IMG/VR virus record: IMGVR_UViG_3300045806_000152
Span: 1-59,969 of that record
DNA length: 59,969 bases
Reading direction: 5' to 3' (one strand)
From: a virus
Lineage: Duplodnaviria > Caudoviricetes
Shown here: positions 1 through 52,201 of the stretch, piece after piece
Layout of the letters: each line of letters opens with the position of its first letter
How positions within the stretch are numbered: the first letter of the stretch is position 1
Made by a program: the position numbers and the translations under genes
The notes under the pieces: model-generated
The model's database searches: none
The model's input: the letters and a program-made list of their open reading frames with translations, nothing else
Told to the model about the DNA's origin: nothing

Positions 1-53
1 TATTTAATAGCTGGGGGAGGGGGAAGTATTCATTAATTTAGAGGGTTCTGTCA
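1..53. repeat. 53-bp inverted repeat, copy 1 (may extend beyond the window start)
   Basis: Exact reverse complement of 52149-52201. Confidence 0.95.
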
Positions 54-707
54 TAACTTAAATAAAATGTTTTATTGATTAAAAATTATATGAATAATTA
101 TGTAATTAAAATAAGATAAATTTTTATGTTATGCAAAATAAACCTGAATAATGAAACCTTTGATTATTTATTGATATTCCTTTTATAATTAAACTAATGG
201 TTAGCCTCCAGATAATAGATATACACTATATTCCTACCGGAATCCTGTAAGTCTTATCTGGAGGATATTACTTAATCTATAACTTTAATTGGGAGGTGTT
301 TTTGTGCTCCGCAATAACCCGATCATCCTAATAAGTCAACTAACAACCTATATAGGTTATTACTTGAGTAGAAGTTAGATTGAAGTCAGAAATAGATAAT
401 GATTAATACATATTGACATATAGGGCCTTTTAATATGATGCCATTGATATTATGTATTAGCAACTACTGCTTAGTAGACTAAAACCAAGTATATTCATCA
501 TGCAAATGTGCTTGAATAAAATAATCTACTACCCCTTTCAGGGTTAATTTAGCGGCTTCCTCACGGGTGCGACTTACTGAGTGGCTCAGGTTGCAGTTTC
601 TGGTAGGGTAGCGGCAGTTTTCGGAATTTTTGATGAGTGGGTCATGCGGGTAAAATTTCACTCGGATAATCTTTGAATATTTTTGGTGCAGTATCTTTAC
701 ATGAAAC

Positions 708-797
708 AAAAAAAAAAAAAATAGGCGGCCCTCCAGCTACTCTCCATAACCAACCCATTTAAGGGAAGATTATGGAGAGTAGCTGGAGGGCCGCCTA
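708..797 (-). terminator. Long hairpin with poly-U tail; intrinsic terminator ending the minus-strand gene block
   Basis: 28-bp perfect arms at 722-749 and 770-797, followed on the minus strand by a 14-nt T run (A run 708-721). Confidence 0.85.
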
Positions 798-859
798 AAT
801 TATTTTTTACTTATAAACAAGTTTAATTGGATTCTTATAAGAATTTCTTTAAAGCCTCA

Positions 860-1222
860 TTAAAACATTCTTATACAATTTCTTTCTAATACTCTCAATA
901 ATTTAATCATATCATCCTTACTATGATCATACCAAAACTCATCATCGAATTTTACAAAAGGAAAACCACCTTCTGGATCAGGGTAAATATTCGCATGAAA
1001 CTTGCAAGATCTCCCTTTAACATAATCCATACTAATAACATCATGATCTGCTGGCTTATTAAATTTAGATACCCCTGGGAAGATACATTGCTTCGCATCC
1101 TCTATACTTAATTCACCATTTTCTGCATGAAGAAATCCCATACCTTGTGGGTTAGAAAGGTCATATACTGTTTGTATTACAATTACCGGAGATATTTTAA
1201 AACTTTTCATTTTATTTTCCAT
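860..1222 (-). CDS. Hypothetical phage protein
   Basis: ORF in tight minus-strand operon; contains MDYVKGRSCK. Confidence 0.7.
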   Translation of the reverse strand: MENKMKSFKISPVIVIQTVYDLSNPQGMGFLHAENGELSIEDAKQCIFPGVSKFNKPADHDVISMDYVKGRSCKFHANIYPDPEGGFPFVKFDDEFWYDHSKDDMIKLLRVLERNCIRMF

Positions 1223-1857
1223 TCCCCTAATTTTTGTGAATATTCTAAAAGAGATCCTTCATAACCTTTTTCAATAATTTCATTTCTCCAAAAACTGTAA
1301 ATAAACACCTTTAACCTTTCTTTTAATATACCTAATGCTAAAGGCTCCATCAAATATACTAATAGTTCATTTGTGCCTTTTACAGGTGTTATAAAGACAC
1401 CTTCATTTAAACCAGAGTTATACTGCATAAATGATAGTATAAAAGAAGTTCGGCCAATATATACTATTGGATATTCTTCAAGTATTTTGTAGTTTTCCAA
1501 TGGGCGATTAAAATACCAACCTTTCTTAAAACTTTTCCATTTACCTTCATCAAATATAACAATATGTAAACCAGCTTCATGTGCATTATCTAGCTTACTG
1601 CGCAGTGTTATCTGTTCATTTGTTTTTTGGTATAGGTCTTTTTCCATTACAGCAACCACATCTGTATTACCTGGAAGATAACAAAGATTACCTGAATTAA
1701 GGTATACTACTAAAGAGTCTCCTCTCTCAAGGATACCAGATAATACCTTTGAATTATTAAGAAAGCCATTAGGCGCAATTTTTATAAACAAGGAAGGTTT
1801 CTTTGCATTAGTTACATGTTGTAATTGTATACCATAAGGTGCTAAATTAAGTTTCAT
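1207..1857 (-). CDS. Hypothetical protein
   Basis: 216-aa ORF with AGGAG Shine-Dalgarno upstream. Confidence 0.75.
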   Translation of the reverse strand: MKLNLAPYGIQLQHVTNAKKPSLFIKIAPNGFLNNSKVLSGILERGDSLVVYLNSGNLCYLPGNTDVVAVMEKDLYQKTNEQITLRSKLDNAHEAGLHIVIFDEGKWKSFKKGWYFNRPLENYKILEEYPIVYIGRTSFILSFMQYNSGLNEGVFITPVKGTNELLVYLMEPLALGILKERLKVFIYSFWRNEIIEKGYEGSLLEYSQKLGEWKIK

Positions 1858-1999
1858 TTCTATTCTCCTTTATTGAAGTATATCTATTAATGTTTCTTCC
1901 AGAACATCCCAATTAATACCTACTTCTGCATTATGGTATCTTTTGGATTCATCACAGTATTTCCAAAAGGGCTAAGAAAACCCCTATTAACAATGAAAA

Positions 2000-2233
2000 C
2001 TAGTATAGCTTGCCCTCCGGTATATTTAAATTAAATGTCCAATGTGTAGGTACTAGACCATAATCTATAAGTCTATCATTGCCTTCAGTTATCCAGTTAT
2101 CACTTTGATATTCTTTATAAATCCTAGCTGTCCTGAAAACATAAGGCGTAGTAATATACCCTGAGGGGCATGCTACTAAAACAAATTCACGATCTTTTGG
2201 TAATCGATCATTTACACTTATCCAATCAATCAT
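2000..2233 (-). CDS. DUF551-like phage protein
   Basis: N-terminal WISVNDRLP and C-terminal PTHW pattern. Confidence 0.75.
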   Translation of the reverse strand: MIDWISVNDRLPKDREFVLVACPSGYITTPYVFRTARIYKEYQSDNWITEGNDRLIDYGLVPTHWTFNLNIPEGKLY

Positions 2234-2342
2234 AATTTATAGTTATTCCTTTCAATTAATAGGTTATATTCATCAACTTGCGGTTTACTACCTTTAGTTT
2301 GGATTGGTTGCTTCTTTAAAAGTACTATATCATGCTTAAAAA

Positions 2343-3026
2343 TTAGTTATTCAAATTTGACACAAATTTACCGCTAGCATCAGTTTTAAATCCTTGATGA
2401 ATCATTGCTATCCCAAGTATTAATTGCTTATTTTCTTCACAAAATGCTGTGGCATCAGCTTCCATTTTATCAATCTCATCTTCGGAGAAATTTGTCCACT
2501 CTTCGGTTGAGTAAAACTTACAACCTATTTTAATATGGGTATCAAAGAAAAATACATTCCACCTCAAACCTGAAAGCTGTTTAAAACCTAGATTAAATGT
2601 AGCTTCCCCATAAGTAGCTCCGGACAAATCAGCTCTGGACAAATTAGCTCCGGACAAATAAGCTCCGAACAAATCAGCTTTGGACAAATCAGCTCTGGAC
2701 AAATCAGCTCCGGACAAATCAGTTTCGGACAAATCAGCTCCGGACAAGCTAGCTCCGGACAAATCAGCTTTGGATAACTTAGATCCATACAAATTAGCTC
2801 CGGACAAATCAGCTCCGGACAAATCAGCTCTGGACAAATCAGCTCTGGACAAATCAGCTCCGGACAAATCAGCTCTGGACAAATCAGCTCCGGACAAGCT
2901 AGCTCCGGATAAATTAACTTGTTGCGAAGCTGCAAGGCTTAAAGTAATTGCAATAGTATTATCTACATGATGATACGAAAAAATAACATTACCTGTAAAT
3001 CTATTTTTAATTTCTATGGTGTTCAT
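2343..3026 (-). CDS. Pentapeptide repeat protein
   Basis: Tandem A(D/N)LS(G/R) repeats encoded by 15-bp DNA repeats at ~2615-2915. Confidence 0.92.
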   Translation of the reverse strand: MNTIEIKNRFTGNVIFSYHHVDNTIAITLSLAASQQVNLSGASLSGADLSRADLSGADLSRADLSRADLSGADLSGANLYGSKLSKADLSGASLSGADLSETDLSGADLSRADLSKADLFGAYLSGANLSRADLSGATYGEATFNLGFKQLSGLRWNVFFFDTHIKIGCKFYSTEEWTNFSEDEIDKMEADATAFCEENKQLILGIAMIHQGFKTDASGKFVSNLNN

Positions 3027-3096
3027 TTGCTACTCCTCTTATGTTTAAAAATTAGTTACGCCAAGCATCACGTTATTTATAGTTATCACCAGAATT

Positions 3097-3489
3097 TTAT
3101 ACATTGTCCTCGTCTTGCTTATATGTAAATGTTTTTGATCCTTGTCCTTCAACTTTTACGGTTAGGACAGCATCCCTAATATTATGTTCAAGATCTCTAA
3201 TAACCTCATTCCACCACCTCTCAATTTCATCTACATTAGAGTAATTTCTAAGATCGCCCCAAATAGCTACAACCATCCATGTAAGACCCTCCCCATATTC
3301 GATAGTACGATACTGAAGTGTACCCTCACTACCTCCTGGTAACTTTGTAGGGATACTCTCGTCACCATCCCAATCATAATCTCTAATTTCTCCAAGGATA
3401 CCTTGTATAACACCTGAGTCACAAATCGGACTTATACCTGGAATACCATCTACACGAATACAACCTACTACATGCGTCCATATGCTCAT
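3097..3489 (-). CDS. Hypothetical phage protein
   Basis: 130-aa ORF with LPGGSEG and WGDLR motifs. Confidence 0.7.
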   Translation of the reverse strand: MSIWTHVVGCIRVDGIPGISPICDSGVIQGILGEIRDYDWDGDESIPTKLPGGSEGTLQYRTIEYGEGLTWMVVAIWGDLRNYSNVDEIERWWNEVIRDLEHNIRDAVLTVKVEGQGSKTFTYKQDEDNV

Positions 3490-3494
3490 TATTA

Positions 3495-3755
3495 TTACTC
3501 CTTGATTAATTTTAGAAGTTCCTCACATGTTGGGAATTTTTCATGACGTGTAACAACAATATCTGCCTCAACTTCTGTTAGATTATTTCCATCACATTTG
3601 TCAGCAAAATATATACCATCAGAATGCTCTTCATTATCTATCTTCCCTGATGAAATCCCCGCGTATACTAGTTTACCACCTGAGTATTTCTTAACAACTG
3701 CAGGTTTACCAAGATTCTCAACTGCAGCCATTTTTGCATCTGAGCATCCATACAA
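3495..3755 (-). CDS. Hypothetical protein, possible lipoprotein with frameshifted signal peptide
   Basis: GCSDA lipobox-like start; the hydrophobic stretch FIVCLVVV lies one base out of frame just upstream. Confidence 0.5.
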   Translation of the reverse strand: MYGCSDAKMAAVENLGKPAVVKKYSGGKLVYAGISSGKIDNEEHSDGIYFADKCDGNNLTEVEADIVVTRHEKFPTCEELLKLIKE

Positions 3756-3825
3756 CTACTAAACAAACAATAAAATGTGGAGCACTTGGTGATTTATAAT
3801 ACATTTTAGTTATTCCTTATTCTAA

Positions 3826-4917: not shown

Positions 4918-4967
4918 TGAAAGACTTAAATTTATTTTATCTATTTTATCACCTCAAATTAATTTAG

Positions 4968-5189: not shown

Positions 5190-5207
5190 TTGTTTCTCTC
5201 ATCCTTT

Positions 5208-5911: not shown

Positions 5912-5937
5912 TTCATTTCTCCAATAAAGTAGTACCG

Positions 5938-6018
5938 CAATTAAGACGTTAATCCGACCGCTTCCACAGGTCGCGGCACCTTATAGACACCGATTAAGGT
6001 GCCTAAATTACGTTAGGG
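5938..6018 (+). mobile_element. Degenerate attC-like site interrupted by a phage-type hairpin
   Basis: Ends in TACGTTAGGG (R' GTTRRR) and has a GC-rich gaccg..ggtc inner stem; left R'' box decayed. Confidence 0.45.
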
Positions 6019-11482: not shown

Positions 11483-11558
11483 TGGTGGAACCTACTGGGA
11501 TTGAACCAGTGACCTAATGATTATGAGTTGTCTGCTATACCATATGAGCTAAGGCTCC
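11483..11558 (-). tRNA. tRNA with CAU anticodon (Met or Ile2), encoded CCA, mismatched anticodon stem
   Basis: GGAGCCT/AGGTTCC acceptor, ACTGG-TTCAATC-CCAGT T arm, CTCATAA loop, ACCA end. Confidence 0.8.
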
Positions 11559-20256: not shown

Positions 20257-23200
20257 TTACCTTACTGGGCAAACACCACCTGCGCAATCACTATCACCTT
20301 CATCAAAGTTTAATGAGGATATTTTTGTAATAATACGAGTCTTAGCTACAAGCTCATTGTATTCTTCTTCAGTTACTTCTTCATAGGGTGCTTGCTTGAA
20401 GCCATGATCAGAATGAAGAAGGAATGAGAGACTCTTATGATTATCTTTATAATTCTTAAACAGGTATTCCTTAATTGCAGGTAATTCTTCTTTCTTGTAG
20501 TATATTGTGCAGCTTACTGAATTATCACTCCACTCAGTTTGCATACGTTTAATCCAAGCAAGTTGATCCAAAGCAGTCATGTCTTTTGCTAGGATTGTAC
20601 CTTTTGGATAAGCATAGGGGAATGTTACAATGAGTGTATTACGATCTTCTTTACCATCAAATCCTACTTGGTATTCTATTGGATACCCATGATCACGACA
20701 TAGTTGAACTAAAGGATGTTCAGCTGCTATCCGAATTCTTCTATACATGAATTGAGCGTAACCGGGGTGGATACCAGGTGTTACGCCAGGAATTAGTGAT
20801 AAAGTATTATGGCTTACATAACTACCAGCAATATAACAATTATTTACTTTCACTTCTATATCAAAAGTGTAGTTTTCTGATTCAGTCTTATTAACTACAG
20901 TATCAAAACTAAAATTATCTAAACCAATTGAGTCTAATTGCTTCCAAGTACTTTTTACTTCATTCTTAATATACCTATCGTCTGCATACCTTCCTTTTCT
21001 CTCTGATATCCAATATCTCATCTTAGTACCAAATGAAGACTCTGTTGGAGGCATTTCACTAACTTTTGCGTCTATCCCTAAATAACGAAGGATTACAGGT
21101 AGCTGCTGCGCAAGTTTATATGAAACTGTAGTCCATGTTCGAGTATCTTTATTCTTATAACCATCTCCAGCAAAGAATCCCTCTAAAAATGACAATATTA
21201 TATTTTTAGGTGATTTTCTTATAATCAAAGGTATTTCTAGATTTTCAGATTTTTGTTTCAATAAACCATTAGCAGATAGCCAATTTAGAATAGGCTGGCT
21301 AGTTGCATAAAGGTCTAAATTAATAGTACCTGGACGTTCATATAATTTCGCCTCATAATTTAATTCAGATTTAAATAGAGATATAAGGTTATTCATATGA
21401 TTAAGTTTTGTGGTTGTATTACCTGCAATACGTATACCTTTTGTATGATTACTACCATCTGCAAAGTATGAACCCAAAATAAAAGCTAAGCCTTCTGAGA
21501 TAAACTCTGGTTGAAATATAGGTGTAGATCTACCACCAAATACTATTTTAGTTAAAGGTTGACTGGAACCACCATTATATCCACCAACTTTATATGGTAT
21601 CTTATCGCCTACTTCTATATCTTTCATCGCTTTCCAAATATACTCACCAGAGTCTGTCAATACACGATATTGATGATTATGTGTACTTTCTAAAAGTATC
21701 CCACCGTCTGTTACTATTTTAATAGTGTCTGCAATACCATTAACAAAGAACTTAGACGCCATTTCATTAGATCTCTCTTGCGCGATAGGTAATTCTATAT
21801 CTTGCCAGTCTTCGCCTTCAGTATCACCGATTTCATCTAAATATAATAAACCATTTTCAGTCAATAAAAGAGTCTCTCTTATACTACAACCACTAGGCTT
21901 GATCGTAGTAAGCTTAATAGACTCATTAATATTATGAATTTCACTATATCTTTTATCGAAATCACGTAAGTACTCATACCCTTCATTTAGCCAACTGAGT
22001 TGTTCTTCTGATGCCTGTAGTACACCTGTTAGCCCAATTCCCATGCGCATATTTTTGTGCACAATATCTTCTGTATCAGGTTGGTGGCAAGGTAATAGTA
22101 GTGAATGTTTGCATACTCGGTATAGCAATTCAAGTACATCAATAAATTCCTCCTTTGATTCAATATTTGGAAGGAATACCTCTGCGAGACAACATGTCTC
22201 ATACGAGGCCAAGCTTTGTTCTGCACCTTTATTTGTTACTCCAGATTTTAATCTGGGGTTAAGTCATTTCTGCTTAACTCTCTATATCCCTATAGAGAAC
22301 GGACTGTATCATCACCCATAGGTTGGCTTATGGGTTTCTTTGTCAGTCTCTCGCGCCTCTTTAAAACGATATTCCAGTATCGTTTAGGTGTTGCGTCGGA
22401 AGTTGTCTGTTCTAGAGTTTCTCCGATATTCAGATTTAATCGATATACATTACTGCATATAGCCGCTGGCATTCAACGGATTATAACCTTCTACATCAGG
22501 GTCTGGATAGTTGTCATCTCCCAATCGCCCATATTTACGGGAAAGTGGGAGATTAATTAATCCAAACGGTTCACCTTTGCCTTCGTAGCCCTCCCAAAAG
22601 TAGTCGTGAACATCTTCCATGTTATCTACAGCTACACTATTATTTGACATTGCACGCCAAGATGGTACATTTCCAAGAGACCAATGTTTACTAAGAAGAA
22701 ATTCAACATCACTAGGATCCCCTATAGCAATTTGAGCACTTCTGCGAACGTTTCCTGCAACAATAATATACCCAATAATATTCATGATATCTAAAGCATC
22801 AATTGAGCGTATCTTTTTACCACGGCGTTTCATTAGTATCTCCGAGATCTTTTGGATACCCCAACAAAGTTCTTCACAACCAGAAGCGACTCCGCCAAAA
22901 CCTTTAATAGGTTTACCTTTACTACGTATAGCTTGAGTAGAATAAGTAAAGGTTCCTTTTTCTTTCTTGGTGGACATGAAGGCTGCTTTAAGCGTTTTAC
23001 CAAGAAGCCGAACCCACCCTTCTCTTGAATCAGGCACAATAAAGTCAGCTCCGCCATCATCAAATCTTGTAGGGGCACTAAACCAATCACGAACTACTGG
23101 AAGCTTTTCCACATGCTTACGCTGAATATTATAACCCACACCTGATCCCAGAGCTAACATATCCATAGCCCAAATGAATGGTGTAATAGGATGATCTACA

Positions 23201-23529
23201 ACAGTAAAGGCACAATTTTGAAGAGAAGCTAGACCTAAATTATCAACTGTTTTTGTACCAAGCTGCCACCAGAATCTGCCTGCTACTGATCCTTTTAATT
23301 TCAACAAGTATTCTCTAAGACGATTTTCTTCATCTGCAGTAAAACCTATTTTAAGTTGGTCTTTGCATGCGTTTATTACCCGTGCTACTGTGTCTGGAAA
23401 CTCCTCTGTCTCTGCCGTATCTGAATAATCTTCAGGGTTTAATTTACGACTATAAGTGCGTTTATAAGTTAAATAGCCAACAGTACTAAAGGGTGTTTCA
23501 ATATTTTCAGGGTTATTTTTGTTATGCAT
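20257..23529 (-). CDS. nrdJ: Class II (AdoCbl-dependent) ribonucleotide reductase; exons 23529-22476 and 22226-20257; contains an intein
   Basis: TYKRTYSR, NCAF, VAGNVRRSA, spliced GYNP-C-AEQ, TTIKPSG/TLS, C-terminal CAGGVCP. Confidence 0.93.
20806..21888 (-). mobile_element. Intein (361 aa) with LAGLIDADG endonuclease in NrdJ
   Basis: KPSG|CSIRET ... YVSHN|TLS junctions; LGSYFADG and FLEGFFAGDG motifs. Confidence 0.92.
22227..22475 (-). mobile_element. ORF-less group I intron (249 nt) in nrdJ
   Basis: P1 CCGU/GCGG with U-G pair at the splice site, R-like AGAGACUG, S-like GAUACAGUCC, terminal G; splicing restores the TGT Cys codon. Confidence 0.88.
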
Positions 23530-25316: not shown

Positions 25317-28300
25317 TCATAGATCTGTAAATTCCTCTTTTGGTATTTCATCTGCAGCTGTCAATCTACCTGTAGTATTATCATATCTAGCTCCTAAACA
25401 TGGACCAGTTAGACCTGTTGTACGACTCTTTAAACAACTAATTTTTATTAGATTTCTTTTATATTCATCTTCATTTGTCATATCTCGTGAGAAAGCAATA
25501 ATATCAAAACTAATCTGCTTAATACTTCCAGAGTTATGTGTTACTATATGGTTATCTAATAAAAACCTACCGTTACCACTTAATGTAAAACCATAGTAAT
25601 CTTGAATGTCTAGCTTTTCTATGATAACTCCTCTCTTTAATGGATTAGTATACCTGCTAGTATAATTAGGTTTTTGTGTTGGTATTTTATTGATATCACC
25701 TGATATTAGTACTTGAAAAATTATACTTCCATTAGAAGAGTAATACCCAGATATTAATTGTGATCTTATGCTACTATACAATCCAACAGACCTAGCTATC
25801 TTTTTAACATCATTAGCTAATTTCTCATCTTTTTGATAAAAACAAAAAGTTTTATCTCTAGTGGAGTACGACCCATCTGTGTCAATTAATCCAGCTAGTA
25901 ACTCCAATCTGTCTTCAATAGAACTATACTTATAACTAGTGGGTATGTGCTTATTTTCATAAACATTTAAAGATTTAAGTTTATTTAGCATCTCTCCTTT
26001 TTCAGATGTTACAAAGTTAAAATATTCATGATTTTTATCATTAGGGGGTGATAGCTTTGCATTAATTTCTTTGGCAACTCTATCCACTATACCTAAAGTG
26101 CTAGCATCCATAATCCTAAATGCAGATTTAGAGCCATCACCTAACCAAACACCTAATGAATAAGGGGGTATTAAAAGCTCTTTTTTAGGAAGTTCATACC
26201 CCACTGAGTAATGCTGTTTACATCTAAACCTATAGCTATCACTTGTTTTTAAAAAAGCTTTTACTGAAATATCAAACATTTTATCATTATATGATAATGT
26301 TAGTATATGATCCTCATTACAAATAAATTGGTCGCCAGATGTTTTCATAGTAACTCTATACATTTGTTGAGATCCTCTAATTAGATTTAAAACCTCTCTA
26401 GGTGTTCCATCATCTCCTATCAATACATCTCCAACTTTTATGTCTTGTACAAGTTTTACATTACCATCACTAAGTATAACACCAGTGTTAATGGCTAAAC
26501 AACCTTTTATATCATCAATGGTTGGAAGCTTTCCTTCTTCAAAACTTTGCTTACCGTTTGGAGCTTTACGCAAATGAGAGACTAGCCCTATCCATACTGG
26601 GTGTTTCTTTACTAGCCTTAAGAGATCATTCATAATCTTATCAATAGCGGCGTTACCCTCAAGCTCACCAGAACCTTCTGATACCAAAATTGTCAAATGA
26701 TCTAAGAAAATTTCTTTGCATCCCATTAGGCACATATACTCAAGCATATCTACAATAGAACCATCATCGATTGAACCTTGATGGTCTAGTAGTAATACCC
26801 TATCTTCACCAAATACTGCATCAAAACCTACTTTTAAGTCCTCTAAAGAGACCTCCTCATTAGCAGGGTTTCTGTTAATATACATCCCTGATAATTTACG
26901 AGAAGTTTCTGCAGGAGATTCTTCTAAGGATACAATACCTACTTTGTAATCTTTAGAGGTGTTCTGAAGTGTATCAAGAATAATTTCTCTAAGGATTGTG
27001 CTTTTTCCGCTATTATGAGTAACTATAAAATTACCTAAAACAAATCGACCATTACCATCTACCTCAAAACCATAAAATTCATCAATACCTAGCTTTGTTA
27101 TTTCTGGTTTAAATCTTAATGGATTTTTTATTTGCTGCCTTGGTTTAGCTTTCTTTCTATTTAATGCAACTGGAATTTCTTCTAAACCATCACCACTAAC
27201 CCAAACTCTAAAACAATTACCAAATTTATTATTTTGCTGTTTTCCTTTTGTAGCTTGAAAACCTAGTGAATTTACTAATCTAATAAATTGATCAGTAATG
27301 GTTTCACTTTTTTGCGAAAATTCATAACCATTATTATGAGAGTCATAGCTACCATCTGTATCAAGTAACCCAGCAAGTAATTGTAATCTGTTTTCAATAC
27401 TAGAGCATAAATAACCTTCGGGGATATGTTTGTTATTTATTAATCCTAAAGAGTCTAATTTAGACTTTAAACCACCAAAATTACCATCTGAAAGCCCCCA
27501 TGAATATTCGGTTTTATGGTTTATAACAGATACACCATATGTTTCTAATCTAGCTAATATTTGATCACCTTCATTGGATAATCTAGCACCTGCTGAGTAT
27601 CCATCACCCAACCATACACCTAACACATACGGATGAATTATTGATTCATAATCATTAACAAACTCAACTAAACCCACTTTAAAAAGTTTTGATAGATGCT
27701 TTCTTTTATCTGACCATTTTAAGTAATCTGATAATTTTACATCGACTATTTCATCCTTAGAAAGCCCCCAACGACCTTCCCCATCGTTATTAACTAAAGA
27801 AAGTATATGAGATTCATTGCAATTAAAGTATTCACCACCTCTTATTGAAATCCGATACATCTGCTCCATACCTCTAAACAATGTTAAAACATTTCTAGGT
27901 AAGTTATCATCTCCCATAATTACATCACCAATGGAAATATCTTCTACTTTCTTTTTACTGCCGTCAATCATAAGTATTTCAGTTCCCTTGGTAAAACAAC
28001 CTGTCCCAGAAATGAATAAAGCAATCTCACCTTCCCTACGTCCTTTTATTTTAGTATTTAAACCAGCTAAACATGCAGGGTATGGCACGGCTATCTTATC
28101 ATTATATTCAGAAAGCTGTTTCCAAAGTTCTTCTTTACCAATAATACCTGCTGGAGTCCATGCCTGTGCATCCCAAATACAATGTAGTAAGGTAGACCCA
28201 CCATGCTTTAATAAGACTTCATTAGGATCTTTATCAGGTAATTTTGCTATCTTAACCTTGTCTACACCGATAATACGAATCGCTTGACTAGTAGCCTCTT

Positions 28301-28976
28301 GCCCAGCTTTATCATTATCAAAACATAAGATAACTTCGTCGAAACTTCGAAGCCACTCACGATCATCTAATAATTTCTTTACAAGAGTTGCTGAAGGGAT
28401 AGATATAACAGGGTAGAATTTTTGATACTTATCATAGTAAGCCTTAGCTATAGACATAGCATCAAGCTCACCTTCAGTTATTACCAACCTTTTACCACCA
28501 CCAGGAAACTTATTTTTTCCAAATAAGCCTTTAAGACCTCCAATATATGAAAATATTTTTGGTAATTTTCTTACCTTATAACTTACATGGTCGCCATCAA
28601 TATAAGGATAATAATGTGCATCAATTTCACCTGCAGAATTATATGTGACTCTTACATCATAAAACTCACATACATTCTTGGTGATATCTCTTTCTTTAAA
28701 ACCTCTTATAGGGTAAGTAAGAATTTCTTCAATTTTTGAATTATCACTTTTAGCTATCCCTTCTTCAACAGAAACATTTTCTGTTTCAACTTTAAAGAAA
28801 TCTTCTGTATTAGGATCCTTTTTGGGTTTCATCTTAGGCGCAAATTTCGGTACATTAAAAGGTGTATTGCATGAGAAACAAAAACTTGAACCATCCTCAT
28901 ATATCTGCAGTGCATCGCTACTACAACATTTAGCTTGATCTAAACATGGTTGTGCTGCTTTAACTATCTTGCCCAT
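25317..28976 (-). CDS. T7 gp4-like primase-helicase (567 aa after removal of two inteins)
   Basis: Zn ribbon (SSDAL..FCFSC), TOPRIM ITEGELDA and FDNDKAG, Walker A GTG/SGKS, LDHL, VSHLRK, DIKG/SGSIKQ. Confidence 0.95.
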   Translation of the reverse strand: MGKIVKAAQPCLDQAKCCSSDALQIYEDGSSFCFSCNTPFNVPKFAPKMKPKKDPNTEDFFKVETENVSVEEGIAKSDNSKIEEILTYPIRGFKERDITKNVCEFYDVRVTYNSAGEIDAHYYPYIDGDHVSYKVRKLPKIFSYIGGLKGLFGKNKFPGGGKRLVITEGELDAMSIAKAYYDKYQKFYPVISIPSATLVKKLLDDREWLRSFDEVILCFDNDKAGQEATSQAIRIIGVDKVKIAKLPDKDPNEVLLKHGGSTLLHCIWDAQAWTPAGIIGKEELWKQLSEYNDKIAVPYPACLAGLNTKIKGRREGEIALFISGTGCFTKGTEILMIDGSKKKVEDISIGDVIMGDDNLPRNVLTLFRGMEQMYRISIRGGEYFNCNESHILSLVNNDGEGRWGLSKDEIVDVKLSDYLKWSDKRKHLSKLFKVGLVEFVNDYESIIHPYVLGVWLGDGYSAGARLSNEGDQILARLETYGVSVINHKTEYSWGLSDGNFGGLKSKLDSLGLINNKHIPEGYLCSSIENRLQLLAGLLDTDGSYDSHNNGYEFSQKSETITDQFIRLVNSLGFQATKGKQQNNKFGNCFRVWVSGDGLEEIPVALNRKKAKPRQQIKNPLRFKPEITKLGIDEFYGFEVDGNGRFVLGNFIVTHNSGKSTILREIILDTLQNTSKDYKVGIVSLEESPAETSRKLSGMYINRNPANEEVSLEDLKVGFDAVFGEDRVLLLDHQGSIDDGSIVDMLEYMCLMGCKEIFLDHLTILVSEGSGELEGNAAIDKIMNDLLRLVKKHPVWIGLVSHLRKAPNGKQSFEEGKLPTIDDIKGCLAINTGVILSDGNVKLVQDIKVGDVLIGDDGTPREVLNLIRGSQQMYRVTMKTSGDQFICNEDHILTLSYNDKMFDISVKAFLKTSDSYRFRCKQHYSVGYELPKKELLIPPYSLGVWLGDGSKSAFRIMDASTLGIVDRVAKEINAKLSPPNDKNHEYFNFVTSEKGEMLNKLKSLNVYENKHIPTSYKYSSIEDRLELLAGLIDTDGSYSTRDKTFCFYQKDEKLANDVKKIARSVGLYSSIRSQLISGYYSSNGSIIFQVLISGDINKIPTQKPNYTSRYTNPLKRGVIIEKLDIQDYYGFTLSGNGRFLLDNHIVTHNSGSIKQISFDIIAFSRDMTNEDEYKRNLIKISCLKSRTTGLTGPCLGARYDNTTGRLTAADEIPKEEFTDL
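25533..26501 (-). mobile_element. Intein 2 (323 aa, LAGLIDADG) in helicase motif H4
   Basis: DIKG|CLAINT ... IVTHN|SGS; LLAGLIDTDG. Confidence 0.93.
27012..27998 (-). mobile_element. Intein 1 (329 aa, LAGLIDADG) in the helicase Walker A
   Basis: SGTG|CFTKGT ... IVTHN|SGKS; LLAGLLDTDG. Confidence 0.93.
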
Positions 28977-44705: not shown

Positions 44706-47700
44706 TTAACAAAATGCATATTCTGATTCAAGAATAGCTGCAACATTTAAATTACCTATTTCTACTTTTTCTAATGAACCTCCAATATCTTCCATCAACT
44801 TTTTCAATGGATCATTACTGTATAATTCTACAAATGTCTCCCTTACAATCAGAAATAAATCAGACATATCCCCTAATAAACAACCATAACTATCATGTAT
44901 CGTAGTCACTGGGAAATTAGCCTTGCAGACAGTCATTATTAAATGTGTGGCATCTAAACTGTGGATTGCATTTGGTGAAGCACCATTAGATTGCTTACCT
45001 CTAGATGGTTTAGTTATTTCCGTATGACATATTCTAAGCTGTAATGTATTTGGATAATAACCTGAACTAGTCCTTGTCATTCCCTCATGAGGACCATATT
45101 GTACCCAAATCTGCTTAACTTCCCCTTCTATATAATGCTGTACAACAGGGAAGTTAACTATTGGGGTATGCCAAGATAAAAACTCACCTTTGGCCTCTGC
45201 TGCTATTCCTGCCTCTGTAAAGACTGAAAGTAATCTCATTGGTTTAGCAATACTTGTTTTGCAGTCTTCATAAATTAAGCGTCCTAAGAAAACTGCCCAG
45301 GATAACTCTAAATATATTAACAGATCAAGTCCGTGTTTTCTAGCATCATCATACACCTGCGTCCCCATCCCATAGGGCGTACTTCCATCGTTTTATTCAA
45401 TCATAATCGTTAGTTATGATCCGTATTACCTAATTAGTTTATTAAGAACTTGCAAATTCGCCATGCAAGTCTTTTGCTTTAGCTGCATATGCATCCGCAG
45501 CCTCCTCTGGTGTATCAAACAATCCTATGTAAACCTTTTTATTAATCTTACCATCAAATATTCTAGCTTGGTATTTTCTGCTTGGAGTTATATGGACACC
45601 TTTAAAACCTGTAGTGCTATTCTTAGGTAGCCCTGTATTTGCACGCTGCTGACTTCTAGTTGCTAATCTTAAGTTTTCAATCTTATTGTTTAATGGATTT
45701 CTATCCTTGTGGTCCACTTGGTAGCCACTCGGTATTAATCCAAAATGCATTTCCCAAATAACATTATGAAGCATATAGGTTTTTATCTTATGTTCTAGCT
45801 GATAATATCCATTACTATTAATCCAACCAACTTCATAACTACCGCTTATAGCTTCTTTTCTAGTTAGTGTACCTTCCTGATTATATATAAAATAAAATCT
45901 CCAGTATTCCTCTACACTAACTTCCTTCTCAACTATTACGGGTATTTTAAAAACTCTAATACTTAGTGAATTATCTTTTTGATCTATATTTGTGTTACTT
46001 GTTGGTACTTTAAATTTTAACATTTTATTCTTATAATTTTATTCTTAGGTAATACTGCTACACATTACTATGTAGACTAGACTATATCATCATTCAATTA
46101 AAAATTAATTGAAGCTGGGCGCTTCCACTCACTTGAGTGTATGGAATTCATCTTCTGTTCTAGAAGGTATTTCCTAGTCGTTGCTCCTTCAATTCTATTC
46201 CTAGAAAAGCTTGGATCAGGATTGACCATGGCGAATGGTTATCCCCTGAGTTCACCCAATTTTAATATCGCAATTTTGTTTACGATATGGTCATCGTACT
46301 TCTTTTTACTATTTTTCTTCTATACTTATTATCTTTGACACGCATCCAAAATACTACAGACGAATTTTTTAATGTTTCAGTATTATCAGCTTTTAATTGC
46401 TGTAGTTCAGCTACTAAATTTTTCCTATGATCACTACGCTGTTCTGCAGCCATTATTTGCTTCTTTAATTCAATTATATTATCAATAAACTCTTCGTATA
46501 TCTCTGCTTCTGCATGGGGAATTTCATCATAGGTTTCTTGTAGATGTTCCCAGACATGTTTGGCCACATGTAGATAGATGTCTCCGGGGAATTCTGATGG
46601 AGTCAGATTAACATGAGGAGCTGTTTGACTATCTAGAGTGAGAGCCGACAAATGTTGTATTCCATTATTACTCAATATGTTCGAAATGATTCGTTAAATC
46701 ATTCCCGTTGTGTATTAGTCGTTAGCGGCGACGTGCTTCCATGTTGTTCCGGCCCTTATACATCTTAAGGCTCCACCTGATATATTATATTCTTTTTGTA
46801 ATAAGGCTATAGATACTCCATTTCTAAGTTTCTTTTTAATTTCAGCCACTCTAGATTCATCTAATTTAGAAATTACTAAAGCTGAACCTAACAAACGTGT
46901 TTCTTTTGTTATTTCAAATAATCTGTAGGGTTCTGGCCATGCTACATGCATCCAAGACTTATTCATAAGTACTGGCCGCTAACCAATAATTTTAATACAC
47001 AACTGCTATATATTACTATATAGTTCAGACTATCTCTTCTCCACCTAAAATAGGCTTCGTTTTGCACTTCCCATTCACTTGAATGGTACGATCTTTCGAT
47101 CTAGTCGTTACACCCGATTTAACTTGGCTCGGTATTGTCCCTAGACTCCATACTAGTAGGATGTTCACCGAATTCACAAAATTTTATGACAGCCGTAAAT
47201 TAACCGTCAATAAATACCTCTAAATTGCTTTCGTAAGAGTATATTGCATTTTCAATACAAACACCCTCCTGAGCTAATTTGAATTCTTCCAATTCAGCCC
47301 AAGTTTTAGCTTTACGCCATTCCATACATGCAGCCAGGAATTGCCACGGAGAATCTGCGTTTTGCCAACGAGTATTTACTTTAGGGTTATCAGCATACGA
47401 CAATAACACTTCTTCATTGTCAATACACCACAATACCCTATCATTAAGAGGTATCTTATCGGTTTTAAACCCATCATCTCTTCCCGCATCGCCTGCCCAG
47501 TTGCTAGCTATAGATATAAGTAGCCAATAAAATCCTTGTTCACCTATAGGTTTACTGTCTGCTCTTAATAACATACCCCTTGACATATCTGAGCCTTGTT
47601 CATGCATATAGGCTGTGGCTGGATAACGTCTTGATCTAAAATCGTAATAATATAACATTTGTTAAAATAAATCGTTAATTTATTCTTTCTAAATTATTAT

Positions 47701-49202
47701 ATGAGACCAATTTCTACCTGTTCTAATACAATTGATAGTGCCACTATGTACTCCAAATAATTCTGCTAACTCTTTATTTGTAGCACCAGCCAGCATTAAC
47801 ATTTTTATATCATATACAGATTCATTAGTTAATTTACTATTTATTGCTGTTTCACCTTTTGTCATTAATCCAGAATTTTTGGCATGAATAACATTATATA
47901 GTTGTGTACACCACTCTAAGTTATCCATATGATTATTCCTTTTATTAGTATCTTTATGATTTACTTTTGGTAAATTATAAGGATTTTCTATAAAAGTTAT
48001 TGCTACAAGACGATGAACCCTTTCTGTTTTATTTATACCATCAACACAAAGTTGTACTTGTAAATATCCTTGACCATTATCATTCTGCTTTAAGACACGA
48101 CCTTCTTTTATATATTCGCCACCAAAAGTGCTATTAACTATTTTAGTTTTACTTTTGATATTACCATAAGATGAAACTTCATAGTACTCATTAAAATCTT
48201 TCCAAATTTCCATTATAATTCTCCGAATTATTTAATTTAAAAACTGTATGTTACCATACATGATCAGACTATATCATAATAGTTTCCACTATTCCTTGCG
48301 CTTCCAATTCACTTGAATTGTACTCTACTAAGTTTATATCATATCCATGATTACTTTTCGATAGTCGTTGCCCCCGATTTAACTTGGGTCAGGATTGGCT
48401 TATGGACTCCATACCTATTAGCTATTTCCTGAGTTCACAAGGTTTACTACCACCTATATTAATGGTAGAATGTTTTACCAATAAATCTCTTGGCAATCCC
48501 TTGAATAGCTTTAGCTTCTCTAAGTTTAGATTGCTTTGCCTCTCTAGAGACCATTTCCCATATCTCACTAAATACCTCAGTTTTATTCCTTAATGCCCAT
48601 GCATATATATGATAAATAGGTTCATTAATTTTCCATCCAACCTGCTGTGCACGATTTACACATTCAAAAACCATCGGGCATCTTTCAGGTGTTAATTCTG
48701 CAAGTACATCGGTATTTGCAGTTTTTACAAGCATAGCCCCAGTAGGGTGCCTGGATGATACCCATGGCTCAAACGGGGTTTCTGATGGCAGCTTATCTGA
48801 CTTTTGTGTTGGAATAACACTCCAAAGCTTACTAATTTCATCATCATTCATAACTTCTAGAATATATGTAGCATGACCATTAGAAGCACGTCCTAATTTA
48901 ATTTCAAGCATTCCTAAGATTTGAAATGAATATAGAATGAATGCCCCAGCTCTAGCTGCAGTCCCAGAATCTCTCTTTAACTTAAATGCATTACGTATTG
49001 CATGGCCTATAGCTGTAATAACTTTAGCCATAAGAATTGTTTGCATAGAACCCTTACCAACACGAGTGTATAGGTATACTATTGAGATTGATAGATCTAC
49101 TATATCTTCTACAGGAAGTTCTTTTAGAAATACTACAGGGTTTTGTGAAACAATTTCAGATTCTAAACGATTTGTTATGGATGCAATTAATTTTTGTTTC
49201 AT
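44706..49202 (-). CDS. T7-like single-subunit RNA polymerase, 755 aa after splicing; exons 49202-48462, 47655-47203, 46672-46282, 45388-44706
   Basis: Spliced motifs FYH|LYYYDFRSRRY, FIDG|SNNGIQH (motif A), RKIVKRSTMTISY|GS (motif B, Tyr codon split), PNAIHSLDA, IHDSYG (motif C). Confidence 0.93.
45389..46281 (-). mobile_element. Group I intron 3 (893 nt) of the RNAP gene
   Basis: P1 AUAUCGU/GCGAUAU, R-like AACGACUA, S-like UGAUAUAGUC, terminal G. Confidence 0.9.
45442..46023 (-). CDS. Intron-encoded HNH-AP2 homing endonuclease
   Basis: VDHKDRNPLNNKIENLR and AP2-like GFKGV...YIGLFDTPEEAADAY. Confidence 0.9.
   Translation of the reverse strand: MLKFKVPTSNTNIDQKDNSLSIRVFKIPVIVEKEVSVEEYWRFYFIYNQEGTLTRKEAISGSYEVGWINSNGYYQLEHKIKTYMLHNVIWEMHFGLIPSGYQVDHKDRNPLNNKIENLRLATRSQQRANTGLPKNSTTGFKGVHITPSRKYQARIFDGKINKKVYIGLFDTPEEAADAYAAKAKDLHGEFASS
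46673..47202 (-). mobile_element. Group I intron 2 (530 nt) of the RNAP gene
   Basis: P1 GACGGU/GCUGUC, R-like AACGACUA, S-like AGAUAGUC, terminal G before AGT AAT AAT. Confidence 0.9.
46715..46966 (-). pseudogene. Remnant homing endonuclease (C-terminal HTH only)
   Basis: SKLDESRV.EIK...TWKHV repeat present, no HNH core. Confidence 0.7.
47656..48461 (-). mobile_element. Group I intron 1 (806 nt) of the RNAP gene
   Basis: P1 CUACCAU/GUGGUAG, R-like AACGACUA, S-like UGAUAUAGUC, terminal G. Confidence 0.9.
47689..48213 (-). CDS. Intron-encoded NUMOD4-HNH homing endonuclease
   Basis: EIWK..YEVSSYG, VHRLVA..FIEN, VNHKDTNKRNN..DNLEW. Confidence 0.92.
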   Translation of the reverse strand: MEIWKDFNEYYEVSSYGNIKSKTKIVNSTFGGEYIKEGRVLKQNDNGQGYLQVQLCVDGINKTERVHRLVAITFIENPYNLPKVNHKDTNKRNNHMDNLEWCTQLYNVIHAKNSGLMTKGETAINSKLTNESVYDIKMLMLAGATNKELAELFGVHSGTINCIRTGRNWSHIII

Positions 49203-49493
49203 TGTTCATCCTTAATTTTATTAAATTAGTTTTTACTATTTATCTTTTGTAATATTTCAGGGATTAAAGATATTAACCAGACACATATTACAAATAATAT
49301 TAATGCTTTCATTTAGTTTTACCATTTTTCTGTAAGAAGTATGCCAAGGCTGTTCCTAAAATTATTGCATCAAGAGACAGCTTGGTGAATATAATTAATA
49401 ATGCTGCAATTGTTAACACATGTACTAAATTTTCCATATTATATTTTTATAGTTATTATGGTTATAAGAAGGATTTCTATGAATCCATTATTG

Positions 49494-49551
49494 AAAAAAA
49501 AAAAAAGTTAAATAAAAACCTAACTACACCAATTAAGGTGTAGCTAGGGTT
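49494..49551 (-). terminator. Hairpin with poly-U tail
   Basis: ctacacc-aattaa-ggtgtag stem with A13 run at 49494-49506. Confidence 0.65.
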
Positions 49552-49936
49552 AATACAAATATATATCTTTATGTGAACATGTTATTATACTTTTAAGATT
49601 CTCTACTTGTTCTTCAGAAATAAAAAATGGTACAGTTGAGTCTTTTTCATCTAAACTATATACACCTATTACATATTTTGGTGACCATAAGCTGCCCTGT
49701 ATACGCTTCATATCAGATATTTCTAATACAGAAGGGTTTAATCTTCTTATAGATTTAATAAATCTTGGATTAAGTCTAATTCTATCTAGCATATATATAT
49801 TACAATCTTTTTCAGGACCAACAAAGAACCACCCTTCAATTCTAATAAAAGGTATTGATAGCTCTTTAGACTCAGCTGCCCTTGAGACAGCCGAGGTATT
49901 CATGATATTAAACAGCTTCAGGTGAGATATCTTCAC
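49550..49936 (-). CDS. Hypothetical early protein
   Basis: ORF in early region. Confidence 0.55.
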   Translation of the reverse strand: MKISHLKLFNIMNTSAVSRAAESKELSIPFIRIEGWFFVGPEKDCNIYMLDRIRLNPRFIKSIRRLNPSVLEISDMKRIQGSLWSPKYVIGVYSLDEKDSTVPFFISEEQVENLKSIITCSHKDIYLY

Positions 49937-50255
49937 CCTTCTTAAAACTGAAGAAATCTTTAAAGTTCTGCCAATTCTTTTCAGCAGCCAAACCTAAGAT
50001 ACCACTTTTTTGAAGCTTATAAACACCAAGAGCAGACAACAATGTTCCACCTACAAAACGAATTGCAGCAGAGCCTACACACCATTCTGTTGCAAGATGT
50101 ACTGCATGTGCACTGATAAATAAACCGCCAGTCATGGTACCTGTGGCTGTAATACATGCAAAGAATGCTGCAATGGCCAATACAATCAAACCAATGATAA
50201 GTGCATTCATTGCTTCTTCTGTCAACATACCCAATAACATAAATGCTGTTTTCAT
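49908..50255 (-). CDS. Hypothetical membrane protein
   Basis: Hydrophobic helices; SD upstream. Confidence 0.7.
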   Translation of the reverse strand: MKTAFMLLGMLTEEAMNALIIGLIVLAIAAFFACITATGTMTGGLFISAHAVHLATEWCVGSAAIRFVGGTLLSALGVYKLQKSGILGLAAEKNWQNFKDFFSFKKGEDISPEAV

Positions 50256-50555
50256 ACAATTTCCTTTATAGAAGTTTAACTACAGTTTTACAACAAATAC
50301 CATTTAAGGGTGCATCCTTCATATGATAGCTGTTAGTGGATCGTGGCGTACACACCTTTTTTGACAAGCAACAACTGTCCATTCACTACAGCAATACTCG
50401 GTACAATAGTAGCAGTAGAACACTCTTTAGTATCACCTCTAGCTATTGCTATTTGTTTCTGGAACTCTTTATATTGTAGTTGTGCAGCATTCATCTAAAT
50501 CTCCTTCGATATTTGTAGATAGCCAAAAATTGGCAGTTGATATTGGAGTATTCCT

Positions 50556-50588
50556 TTATCATATAAGATGGTTGTTTTTCCGCAGTTT
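50556..50588 (-). promoter_or_regulatory. Putative phage promoter AAACTGCG-N11-ATCTTATATGATAA
   Basis: Both boxes identical to the 51838-51870 copy; spacer sequence differs. Confidence 0.65.
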
Positions 50589-50672
50589 ATCTCACGATAT
50601 TTTCTACAGAATATTCAAACTCATCTCTCATACGATCAATAGTTTCCTGTGATACACCATGAATACTACCTT

Positions 50673-51050
50673 TTAGTTATACTTCGATATAATATTATTA
50701 CGACAGACATTATCAATACCATCTTCCATATCAGATATTATACCATGACCTTCTATTATAGTAGTCCATACCATAATAGGCTCAGCATACCCTCCATAAC
50801 TATTCTTTGCGCTGATTAAATTACAAACAAAAATATACCCATTGCTGCGTGTAGTATAAAAATTAGACCTTATTTGTAAACTATCTGGGTCTCTTAAATG
50901 ATCTTTTATAGATTGGATAACTGAATTAATTTGGTCATCCCTTAAATCATATACAGTACCGTTCTTAAGAGCATACTCCATTGGGCCTTCTGATTCCTCT
51001 GCAATAGAAACTAACGGTAGCAAGGTTAATAACAATAATAAAATACGCAT
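50673..51050 (-). CDS. Secreted/periplasmic hypothetical protein
   Basis: Signal peptide; LRDPDS and AKNSYGGY motifs. Confidence 0.75.
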   Translation of the reverse strand: MRILLLLLTLLPLVSIAEESEGPMEYALKNGTVYDLRDDQINSVIQSIKDHLRDPDSLQIRSNFYTTRSNGYIFVCNLISAKNSYGGYAEPIMVWTTIIEGHGIISDMEDGIDNVCRNNIISKYN

Positions 51051-51183
51051 TTTTATTCTCCAAAATTAAATATGACAAAATATAAGCCAAACTAACCAAC
51101 AGCTAAATACTACAATTCCAATTACACCAACCCATGCATCTACATGTGGTTGATCCAGCCATTTCCTATTCATACTATTCTCC

Positions 51184-51621
51184 TTAAGGGTACTGAGAAG
51201 GCAGCAAATAATCTTGTGGACGAAGGTGTCCATTAAAATCATCTGCATCATAATTTTTGATATTGATTGGAAGTAATGTACCTTCAACCAATTCTATTGC
51301 ATCACATACAAGGTTGAATACCTTATTTGTACCTGTAGCAGTACGGTGGAAATCTGAATCGGATGTGTATAATGTTTCCATATTACACCCATATTCTTGT
51401 AAGATACATGCTGTTTTCTTGGAATATACAGAGCTATCTAGGAATTCATACAGCTTAAAATTACCAAGTCTGAATCGGAGACATGGTGCTTTACTCCCAT
51501 CTTCATATGTAATGAATTTAAATTCTGAAGGTATATTTCTCATAAGAAATACTGCTGCAACTGCTGGCAACAAACCAGCTGATTTTACTGCGTTATTAAA
51601 GTTCATTTTAATTCCTTTCAA
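51184..51621 (-). CDS. Hypothetical early protein
   Basis: 145-aa ORF. Confidence 0.6.
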   Translation of the reverse strand: MKGIKMNFNNAVKSAGLLPAVAAVFLMRNIPSEFKFITYEDGSKAPCLRFRLGNFKLYEFLDSSVYSKKTACILQEYGCNMETLYTSDSDFHRTATGTNKVFNLVCDAIELVEGTLLPINIKNYDADDFNGHLRPQDYLLPSQYP

Positions 51622-51837
51622 AGTTAAGAATGAAATACCATTTCAACGTATTCCAGATTCATTTTATCATCACGGTATTCTTTTAAAACCGATATAAAAT
51701 ACAATTGGGTAAACCAATTCGTTTTTCTACCGATACAAATTGAGTATATATAACCCTTCATTTGAATCCGAATTTCCATTTTGTTCTCCTTAAGTTAGTT
51801 ACGGGGTTGTGATATTGTATAAAGCATATTGCTTCTG

Positions 51838-51870
51838 TTATCATATAAGATACCATAAAAATCGCAGTTT
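51838..51870 (-). promoter_or_regulatory. Putative phage promoter at the head of the early block
   Basis: ttatcatataagat-N11-cgcagttt on the + strand. Confidence 0.65.
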
Positions 51871-52148
51871 TATTATCAATATTTTGTATGAAATTTAATT
51901 TTATAAATAATGCAAACTATTGTGTTACCTAAAATTTTACACCATGCTCCCAGCCTGTACTACCCCGATTCTGTGTCGGCTTACCATGCAGGCTGGGCTA
52001 GAATTGACAATTACTCGGATCAGATTTCAGAAGAACTACTGAGGGCTTTTCTGGAATTTCTAAAACTAAGAAACCTTCCAAGTATTATCATGCAAGATTT
52101 TTGATCAAATTCGCGACTTTTACGCTCTGAAAACCTTCAAAGGTTTAT

Positions 52149-52201
52149 TGACAGAACCCTCTAAATTAATGAATACTTCCCCCTCCCCCAGCTATTAAAT
52201 A
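52149..52201. repeat. 53-bp inverted repeat, copy 2
   Basis: Exact reverse complement of 1-53. Confidence 0.95.

Follow-up and report, generated by a model that had tools for sequence, protein, structure and literature searches.

The perfect inverted repeat at the start of this phage contig is probably, at roughly 60%, the cut-off end of a longer, two-copy non-coding repeat in which the assembly stopped, and we take it to be a boundary element and not an inversion switch. The window analysed here is the whole 59,969-bp IMG/VR phage record, and a repeat search of the window returned the following two sites as its longest inverted pair:

Positions 1-53, plus strand: left repeat copy, inner 53 nt, cut by the contig start; exact reverse complement of 52149-52201.
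Positions 52149-52201, minus strand: the portion of the right copy whose partner lies inside the contig; exact reverse complement of 1-53.

The two sites are identical at 53 of 53 bases. This is far above the level of block shuffles (20/20), in which the longest exact inverted match was 15-20 nt; after removal of bases 1-53, the longest inverted match left in the window was 28 nt. The 53-bp perfect inverted repeat of the original prediction was thus borne out, as was its sequence common to both copies: GCTGGGGGAGGGGGAAG occurs once in each copy, and these are its two sites in the window at up to two mismatches, versus 0.01 expected. The inverted match breaks at 54/52148; when the 250 bases beyond were compared without gaps, no more similarity appeared. 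It is also true that the window begins exactly on the repeat, but the window is the entire record. Because the contig end truncates the left copy, the repeat is at least 53 bp long, and any contig that ends inside a repeat copy makes the repeat appear to begin at base 1. IMG/VR classifies the record as linear, without end repeats. To our knowledge, 53 nt is not a k value usual for common assemblers.

Contigs assembled at k=31 from four runs (X1-X4) were compared with the window at the right copy. X2 is an independent peat run; X1 contains the identical sequence at 23x and is possibly the source sample. The X2 assembly holds the full exact repeat unit:

Positions 52149-52250, no strand assigned: full exact repeat unit in X2, a separate 102-nt graph node (record 4, depth 18.1).

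The inner flank of this node (record 3, depth 9.4) ends at 52178 and the outer flank (record 5, depth 11.2) starts at 52221, which gives 30-nt overlaps with the node. An alternative outer flank (record 6, depth 8.3) diverges after 52250. The node has about twice the depth of its flanks, of which there are four, and its inner boundary at 52148|52149 is identical to the window boundary at 53|54. Past the 102-nt exact core, any continuation in the following ~34 nt is weak and diverged at best. The letters of the alternative flank have no site in the window at up to three mismatches, so this flank lies outside the contig. The double-depth node with its second outer flank indicates that the repeat is genuine, that it is at least 102 bp long in the X2 strain, and that the contig stops in the left copy, to which the second copy in X2 would correspond. 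An assembly break at the repeat, one of the explanations in the original prediction, is therefore supported. The record resembles other repeat-bounded contig ends of de Bruijn-graph assemblies in that it stops inside a sequence recurring in the genome, with a double-depth node in X2; it differs from them in that the node is unbranched in X1 and X4. A direct terminal repeat was considered as the cause of the double depth and dismissed, since it would not create an alternative flank. In the window itself, the copies are inverted and the second copy is internal: another 7.8 kb of phage genes lie past it. This is not the arrangement of terminal repeats in a packaged genome, which would lie at its two ends and, in T7-type phages, in direct orientation.

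The same depths bear on a long inverted duplication, in which the late side from 52149 on would be present twice, inverted, around the 52-kb block, with the 53 bp as a graph overlap. The shape of the contig (a short overlap, a unique loop and a repeat running on) fits such a lollipop graph, and phiMatilda gave one with 127-bp inverted overlaps at its contig ends (bioRxiv 10.64898/2026.10.21.760668). This explanation is nevertheless extremely improbable: the depth of the late side in X2 (11.2) is not twice that of the inner side (9.4), the alternative outer flank diverges after 52250, X1 has no branch at 52148|52149, and the relatives contain no such duplication.

The right copy is continuous in two runs. 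One X1 contig (49490-59520) crosses it unbroken, and record 20 of X4 (51901-52264) also bridges it, both with more than 31 nt on each side. Record 12 of X3 spans 52133-52329 with only 16 nt on the inner side; the X3 pieces near the repeat were not counted as bridging, since they have less than 31 nt on one side. The single contigs of X1 and X4 across 52149-52201 show that there is no misjoin at the right copy, contrary to another suggestion of the original prediction. At k=31, neither X1 nor X4 has a second copy or a branch at the right copy, and both show the right junction in the contig's configuration only. A second exact copy at similar depth should split the contigs; thus, the strain that the window represents may have a left copy that is rare or diverged, or none at all. 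Alternatively, the left flank, which is very rich in AT, could have been under-covered and pruned from the k=31 graph:

Positions 54-190, no strand assigned: very AT-rich tract with 14% GC, directly inside the left copy (composition scan).

The lowest-GC 120-nt window of the whole contig (58-177) lies here, beside the left copy.

These results leave some room for a left copy that is foreign to the window's own genome. Bases 1-53 would then come from an assembly overhang, from a read that is chimeric or has switched strands, or from a junction in a minor, co-occurring X2-type strain, and the dominant strain would have a single copy. The crossing of the right copy by one k=31 contig in X1 (23x) and in X4, which two exact copies of equal depth should prevent, argues for this, as does the position of the left copy at the very first base of the record. 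On the other hand, X2 independently has a two-copy node with the same inner boundary, so that this type of junction exists in nature. After the 53 nt, moreover, the contig runs on through 52 kb of ordinary phage sequence and shows no continued fold-back, and the flank of 14% GC could explain a branch lost from the k=31 graph. On balance, we regard a foreign left copy as rather unlikely.

The gene content of the window gives the two copies their context:

Positions 860-51621, minus strand: early/replication block, all on one strand (from gene content and synteny with the genome G001).
Positions 52390-59967, minus strand: tail end of the late module (from its position and one homologue beside the G001 tail-fibre gene).

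The phage has a T7-supergroup replication module. The genes in 860-51621 include a split T7-like RNA polymerase, PolA, a 5'-3' exonuclease, a primase/helicase with inteins, ribonucleotide reductase and DNA ligase, and those in 52390-59967 encode a phrog_1544 membrane protein, a glycosyltransferase-like protein, small ORFs and an 880-aa repetitive ORF running off the contig. Gene order in the window from 49550 down to 15032 is the same as in G001 from 78119 to 21925. G001 continues on the same strand with terminase, portal, major head protein, a 2916-aa protein and tail fibre; all PHROG matches of the 2916-aa protein, which concern its N-terminal ~300 aa, are tape-measure families. Three complete relatives, with PolA 47-57% identical, were compared for the repeat and for orientation; closer relatives (PolA 66-67% identical) exist outside this comparison. 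All three are colinear, with the replication and structural modules on one strand. The relative orientation of the modules in relatives, which the original prediction proposed as a check, is thus co-oriented in 3/3, with no inverted replication module. These three genomes have no comparable long-range inverted repeat, only one 20-nt match at chance level. There is no cultured relative above about 40% protein identity. In single-protein locus searches, the two proteins flanking the repeat had no relatives, and PolA alone as the query found one locus, 28% identical; among 5.8 billion proteins, just one cluster is homologous to the ORF at 1207-1857.

The element was also sought elsewhere. In IMG/VR, GCTGGGGGAGGGGGAAG has matches in 10 contigs, all of them GC-rich (49-70%); these were rejected as kin because they are unrelated beyond the 17-mer. 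Among the accessible records, exact searches with a 26-mer of the repeat gave no hits in metagenome contigs or genome contigs, a 24-mer of the left inner flank gave none in metagenome contigs, and viral contigs had no match to a 30-mer taken from the outer portion of the 102-nt unit. As the element is absent from the three relatives, no function can be argued from conservation.

Both copies lie in ORF-poor DNA with hairpins at 336-367, 711-808 and 52359-52384, in agreement with the non-coding, hairpin-rich setting that had been described for them. On the left, there is no minus-strand ORF of at least 70 aa in 1-478; on the right, 51622-52389 (768 nt) is the contig's longest gap without one. 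The terminator at the end of the replication block lies ~650 nt upstream of the left copy. The other features around the copies are as follows:

Positions 711-808, minus strand: large terminator hairpin, with 46-nt arms and then T11 on the coding strand, which closes the replication block.
Positions 52202-52345, plus strand: C-poor, purine-rich tract outside the right copy, with 2 C in 144 nt (composition).
Positions 52359-52384, no strand assigned: terminator-like hairpin with T-rich runs on either side, immediately after the stop (52390) of the last late-side gene.

The hairpin at 711-808 is conserved in G001, with 79% identity over 97 nt to G001 28829-28919. The G001 hairpin likewise has a T run after it, which is followed by a 440-nt intergenic region and then by further genes on the same strand. 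The C-poor tract contains a weak tandem repeat (period 18, 3 copies, 70% matches), and the alternative flank in X2 has the same C-free style as 52202-52345. Over the whole window, an Rfam scan found one tRNA and nothing else, whereas ARAGORN found no tRNA. The fold of 52180-52400 was not unusual (z = -1.3). An outward small RNA with GGA motifs was rejected, because the 3 GGA counted by eye in about 210 nt are no more than composition predicts.

The original prediction also proposed that the repeat bounds an invertible segment. A search with PF00239 and PF00589 (serine and tyrosine recombinases) gave no matches in six frames of the 59,969 bp; among the control genomes, PF00239 was positive in 13/14 and PF00589 in 14/14. 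Gin/Cin/Hin-type segments are similar to the repeat pair in that inverted repeats flank a segment of phage DNA. These segments (in Mu, P1 and P2-like phages) are a few kb long, encode alternative tail-fibre ends and have a serine invertase gene next to them (bioRxiv 10.64898/2026.02.14.705889). In contrast, the repeat pair flanks 52 kb of replication genes in a contig with no PF00239 match. Mu-like transposable phage ends were also considered; they were rejected because the replication module is of the T7 type and phage genes continue past the right copy.

Large invertible regions bounded by inverted repeats are now reported in phages (bioRxiv 10.64898/2026.02.14.705889; bioRxiv 10.64898/2026.10.21.760668). 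A-1(L)/N-1/Elbi-type cyanophages have an invertible region of ~30 kb with inverted repeats of 500-700 bp (bioRxiv 10.64898/2026.02.14.705889), and phiMatilda has bidirectional terminal segments (bioRxiv 10.64898/2026.10.21.760668); the inverted repeats of the A-1(L) group and phiMatilda range from 500 bp to 18 kb, and both isomers were detected by PCR and reads (10.64898/2026.02.14.705889; 10.64898/2026.10.21.760668). In these phages, as in our contig, inverted repeats enclose a block of tens of kb, and no dedicated recombinase is obvious. Homologous recombination between the inverted copies might turn the 52-kb early/replication arc around with respect to the late arc; the population would then contain both orientations, and the contig end would be a trace of that ambiguity. 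The X2 graph shows four flanks, as two inverted copies require, and because k=31 contigs cannot link flanks across 102 nt, X2 is silent on orientation. Against such flipping, X1 and X4 have an unbranched right junction in the contig's configuration only, there is no serine or tyrosine recombinase in 60 kb, the exact core is 102 bp versus at least 500 bp in the precedents, and the three complete relatives have co-oriented modules and no such repeat. Our contig also differs from those phages in its unrelated T7-supergroup replication module and in the one orientation seen. We therefore consider it very unlikely that a repeat of at least 102 bp, at both early/late arc junctions of a roughly 100-kb T7-supergroup phage, lets the arcs flip by homologous recombination, and the invertible segment of the original prediction is unsupported.

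Several known types of control element were compared with the repeat. Promoter-like hexamers (TTGACA-18-AATACT) in the repeat are no commoner than in shuffles. The first 16 nt of the repeat have 3 matches in the window at up to three mismatches (the two copies and one coding-sequence site), versus 1.2 expected, and no intergenic 18-mer family (at least 3 members, at least 15/18 matching) includes the repeat. It thus lacks the pattern of promoters for a T7-type single-subunit RNA polymerase, that is, many sense copies ahead of gene clusters. PeSLs occur in many copies. The PeSLs of T4-like phages are composite promoter/terminator cassettes with an early promoter and a stem-loop (PMC4122927). 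Like them, the element is a short, conserved non-coding repeat between gene modules of a lytic phage, a kind of sequence that could serve both as a control element and as a point of homologous exchange. Unlike PeSLs, it consists of two inverted copies with promoter hexamers at chance level, and there is no hairpin within 1-53; the several copies of early promoter plus stem-loop typical of a PeSL-type cassette were not found.

The reading that we prefer, a boundary repeat cut off by the contig start, may be set out as follows. The genome would have two copies of an exact core of at least 102 bp (52149-52250). The right copy would occupy the 768-nt gap that separates the last of the late genes from the start of the early ones, and the left copy would lie inverted downstream of the replication-block terminator. 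Short-read assembly would have stopped inside the left copy, which is why the record would begin on the repeat. Beyond base 1, synteny with complete relatives predicts the structural module (terminase, portal, capsid and tail), encoded on the same strand. If the map is circular or concatemeric, each junction of the early/replication arc with the late arc would then carry one copy of the repeat. Our best guess is a boundary element, cis-regulatory or origin-like, that lies between the early/replication module and the late one; it may be a cis-acting sequence such as a promoter-leader or an origin-like protein-binding site beside easily melted DNA. With regard to the paired replication or packaging signals of the original prediction, the position of the left copy beside the most AT-rich 120 nt would fit an origin or promoter context.

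In sum, a perfect inverted repeat that starts at base 1 of a metagenomic contig mostly reflects an assembly that stopped inside a repeat, and its length is a lower bound. The non-coding element described here is exactly conserved, has sharp boundaries and sits at the two module junctions of an unusual phage. If arc flipping were true, the recently described phage "genome isomerism" would also occur in a new lineage and with a far shorter repeat; if both orientations were shown, this phage would add a third case, independent of the other two, of large-scale genome isomerism in tailed phages. If there is no second orientation, the element is a candidate control or origin element.

Direct comparison showed that bases 1-53 of the window are the exact reverse complement of 52149-52201, as the original prediction had claimed, and a repeat search found this to be the longest inverted pair of the window. 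None of 20 block shuffles gave an exact inverted match longer than 20 nt (maxima 15-20 nt), and with bases 1-53 removed the real sequence itself reaches 28 nt. The match stops sharply at 54/52148, and the next 250 bases agree at random level only. The claimed G-rich motif was likewise confirmed in both copies: at up to 2 mismatches the 17-mer has two matches in the window (0.01 expected), one in each copy of the repeat. A repeat and hairpin search of the window found no hairpin within the repeat itself. Since the window is the entire record, which IMG/VR classes as linear without end repeats (CheckV completeness 44%), the left copy is truncated by the record end. The window does start exactly on the repeat, but this is automatic for a contig ending inside a repeat copy.

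All 69 ORFs of at least 100 aa that matter in the window lie on the minus strand. The main coding features are as follows.

860-51621, minus strand: early/replication block (PolA, 5'-3' exonuclease, ribonucleotide reductase, primase/helicase with Hint and LAGLIDADG inserts, DNA ligase, T7-type RNA polymerase assigned by PF00940)
48459-49202, 47200-47658, 46280-46675 and 44706-45368, minus strand: T7-type single-subunit RNA polymerase (PF00940), four ORFs

The right copy lies within 51622-52389, the contig's longest stretch without ORFs, which is bounded by a late terminator hairpin (52359-52384) and the first early ORFs. Past a big terminator hairpin (711-808), some 650 nt further on, comes the left copy; directly next to it are the 120 nt with the highest AT content in the contig (58-177, 13% GC). 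The inner flank of the left copy, toward the block, has 14% GC; the tract on the outer side of the right copy (52202-52345) is C-poor and of low complexity, with a weak 18-nt periodicity and no Rfam match to RNA families. Hairpin 711-808, which has 46-nt arms and a T run and closes the replication block, aligns with 28829-28919 of the complete relative G001 at 79% identity across 97 nt, although the PolA of G001 is only 57% identical; non-coding elements are seldom conserved this strongly. In G001 the hairpin is followed by a 440-nt intergenic region and more same-strand genes.

The four RNA polymerase ORFs (44706-49202) match end to end one 758-aa ORF of G001. HNH/NUMOD4 homing-endonuclease ORFs (47689-48213 and 45442-46023) and repeated elements of about 30 nt occupy the gaps between them, and Rfam detected no intron in 44706-49202. 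Either free-standing homing endonucleases or introns that escaped recognition could account for the split gene. The 1219-aa primase/helicase, with two intein-like Hint/LAGLIDADG inserts, and the ribonucleotide reductase, consisting of two ORFs of which the downstream one has an intein-like insert, fall in regions 25317-28976 and 20257-23529 of the minus strand. The block also contains the gene of a pentapeptide-repeat protein (2343-3026, minus strand), whose coding sequence has an array of about 20 units with a 15-nt period, and a tRNA (11486-11558, minus strand) scored at 47.7 bits by Rfam and not found by ARAGORN. Four intergenic copies of ATGATATAGT (minus-strand 5' coordinates 2333, 12708, 46090 and 48277) resemble an extended -10 promoter (TGnTATAGT), and early-region sites 50569 and 51851 both carry AAACTGCG-N13-ATCTTATATGATAA.

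Six public sequencing runs carry part of 50500-53500, and the Logan k=31 contigs of four of them (X1-X4) were mapped on 49500-54500. X2 is a peat sample whose strain has, in 5 kb, 16 substitutions and 2 indels relative to the window. In X2, a first contig breaks off at 52178, after 30 nt of the repeat; a separate 102-nt contig corresponds to 52149-52250 at a depth of 18.1, with flanks at 9.4 and 11.2; the next contig begins at 52221; and a 64-nt contig (depth 8.3) departs the repeat at 52250 into different sequence. This is the graph expected of a two-copy repeat, and on the inner side the repeat stops at exactly the nucleotide where it stops in the window. The alternative flank is absent from the entire window, and therefore lies beyond the contig. 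Thus, the repeat is real, with an exact core of 102 bp in the X2 strain, and the window keeps only the inner 53 bp of the left copy. The earlier suggestion of an assembly break at the repeat is supported, the record being cut within the left copy and the X2 node having about double depth and a second outer flank. The alternative flank can still be matched by eye to 52251-52284, allowing for mismatches and a 3-nt indel, which weakly hints at a longer, diverged repeat beyond 52250 in low-complexity sequence. To the left of 50293, the sequence of the X2 strain is completely unlike that of the window (2.7 kb of different continuation), and behind 50315 it has a 13-nt insertion; this points to early-gene mosaicism between near-identical strains.

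X1 (23x) shows no differences from the window, of which it is possibly the source sample, and a single contig (49490-59520) passes through the right copy. An X4 contig (51901-52264) also spans it; the X3 contig (52133-52329) extends just 16 nt past the inner boundary and was not counted as bridging. At the right copy, therefore, the contig is not misassembled, and a misjoin is refuted there. The k=31 graphs of X1 and X4 gave no sign of a second exact copy at comparable depth, so that the left copy may be an overhang or a minor-strain junction, which we consider unlikely. In the window's strain the left copy may be rare or absent; otherwise its AT-rich and low-complexity flanks would have been too thinly covered and lost from the graph by pruning.

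Among cultured phages, the best matches reach just 28-40% identity (DSS3_VP1/PM1, Roseobacter phage CRP-7 and Pelagibacter phage Kolga). PolA homologs with 54-58% identity occur on IMG/VR contigs of 74-79 kb, and three complete relatives (68-80 kb, CheckV 100%, PolA 47-57% identical) were compared. Read on the minus strand, the gene order of the window between 49550 and 15032 follows that of G001 from 78119 to 21925. In G001, genes for the large terminase, the portal, the major head protein, a 2916-aa protein (PHROG matches all to tape-measure families, in the N-terminal ~300 aa), tail proteins and a tail fibre come next, all on that strand. The DNA that is missing beyond base 1 would, by analogy, be a structural module on the same strand, and 52390-59967 would be the tail end of the late genes. 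The 44% completeness implies a genome of ~136 kb; ~95-100 kb seems a better guess, given relatives of 68-80 kb and a window without the roughly 37-kb G001 structural module.

Large invertible regions bounded by inverted repeats are a kind already known from other phages. In two recent preprints, PCR and read mapping showed a ~30-kb invertible region with 500-700-bp repeats in Anabaena cyanophages (bioRxiv 10.64898/2026.02.14.705889) and invertible, repeat-bounded terminal segments in phiMatilda (bioRxiv 10.64898/2026.10.21.760668). The window repeat, however, is much shorter than the repeats described there, and no second orientation was seen here. Flip-flop of the 52-kb block between the inverted copies, as originally proposed, is unsupported and improbable: six-frame translation of the window contained no serine or tyrosine recombinase domain, and X1 and X4 carry the right junction in the contig's configuration only. 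Module orientation in related phages had been suggested as a check, and replication and structural genes are co-oriented in all three complete relatives. Apart from a single 20-nt match at chance level, these relatives have no long-range inverted repeat, and the G5AG5 motif is absent from all three.

The repeat bears a sigma-70-like TTGACA-18-AATACT pointing outward from the replication block, although such matches occur at shuffle level. From the left copy it would run sense into the expected next operon, and from the right copy antisense toward the late terminator. Read in reverse, an AT-rich stretch followed by GGGGGAGG resembles the start region of T7-type promoters; the element, however, is not a multi-copy motif. 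The repeat would most likely serve as a cis-acting boundary element, promoter-leader or origin-like, and its copies may be the paired replication or packaging signals of the original suggestion; on a circular or concatemeric map its two copies would lie at both junctions of the early/replication arc and the late arc.
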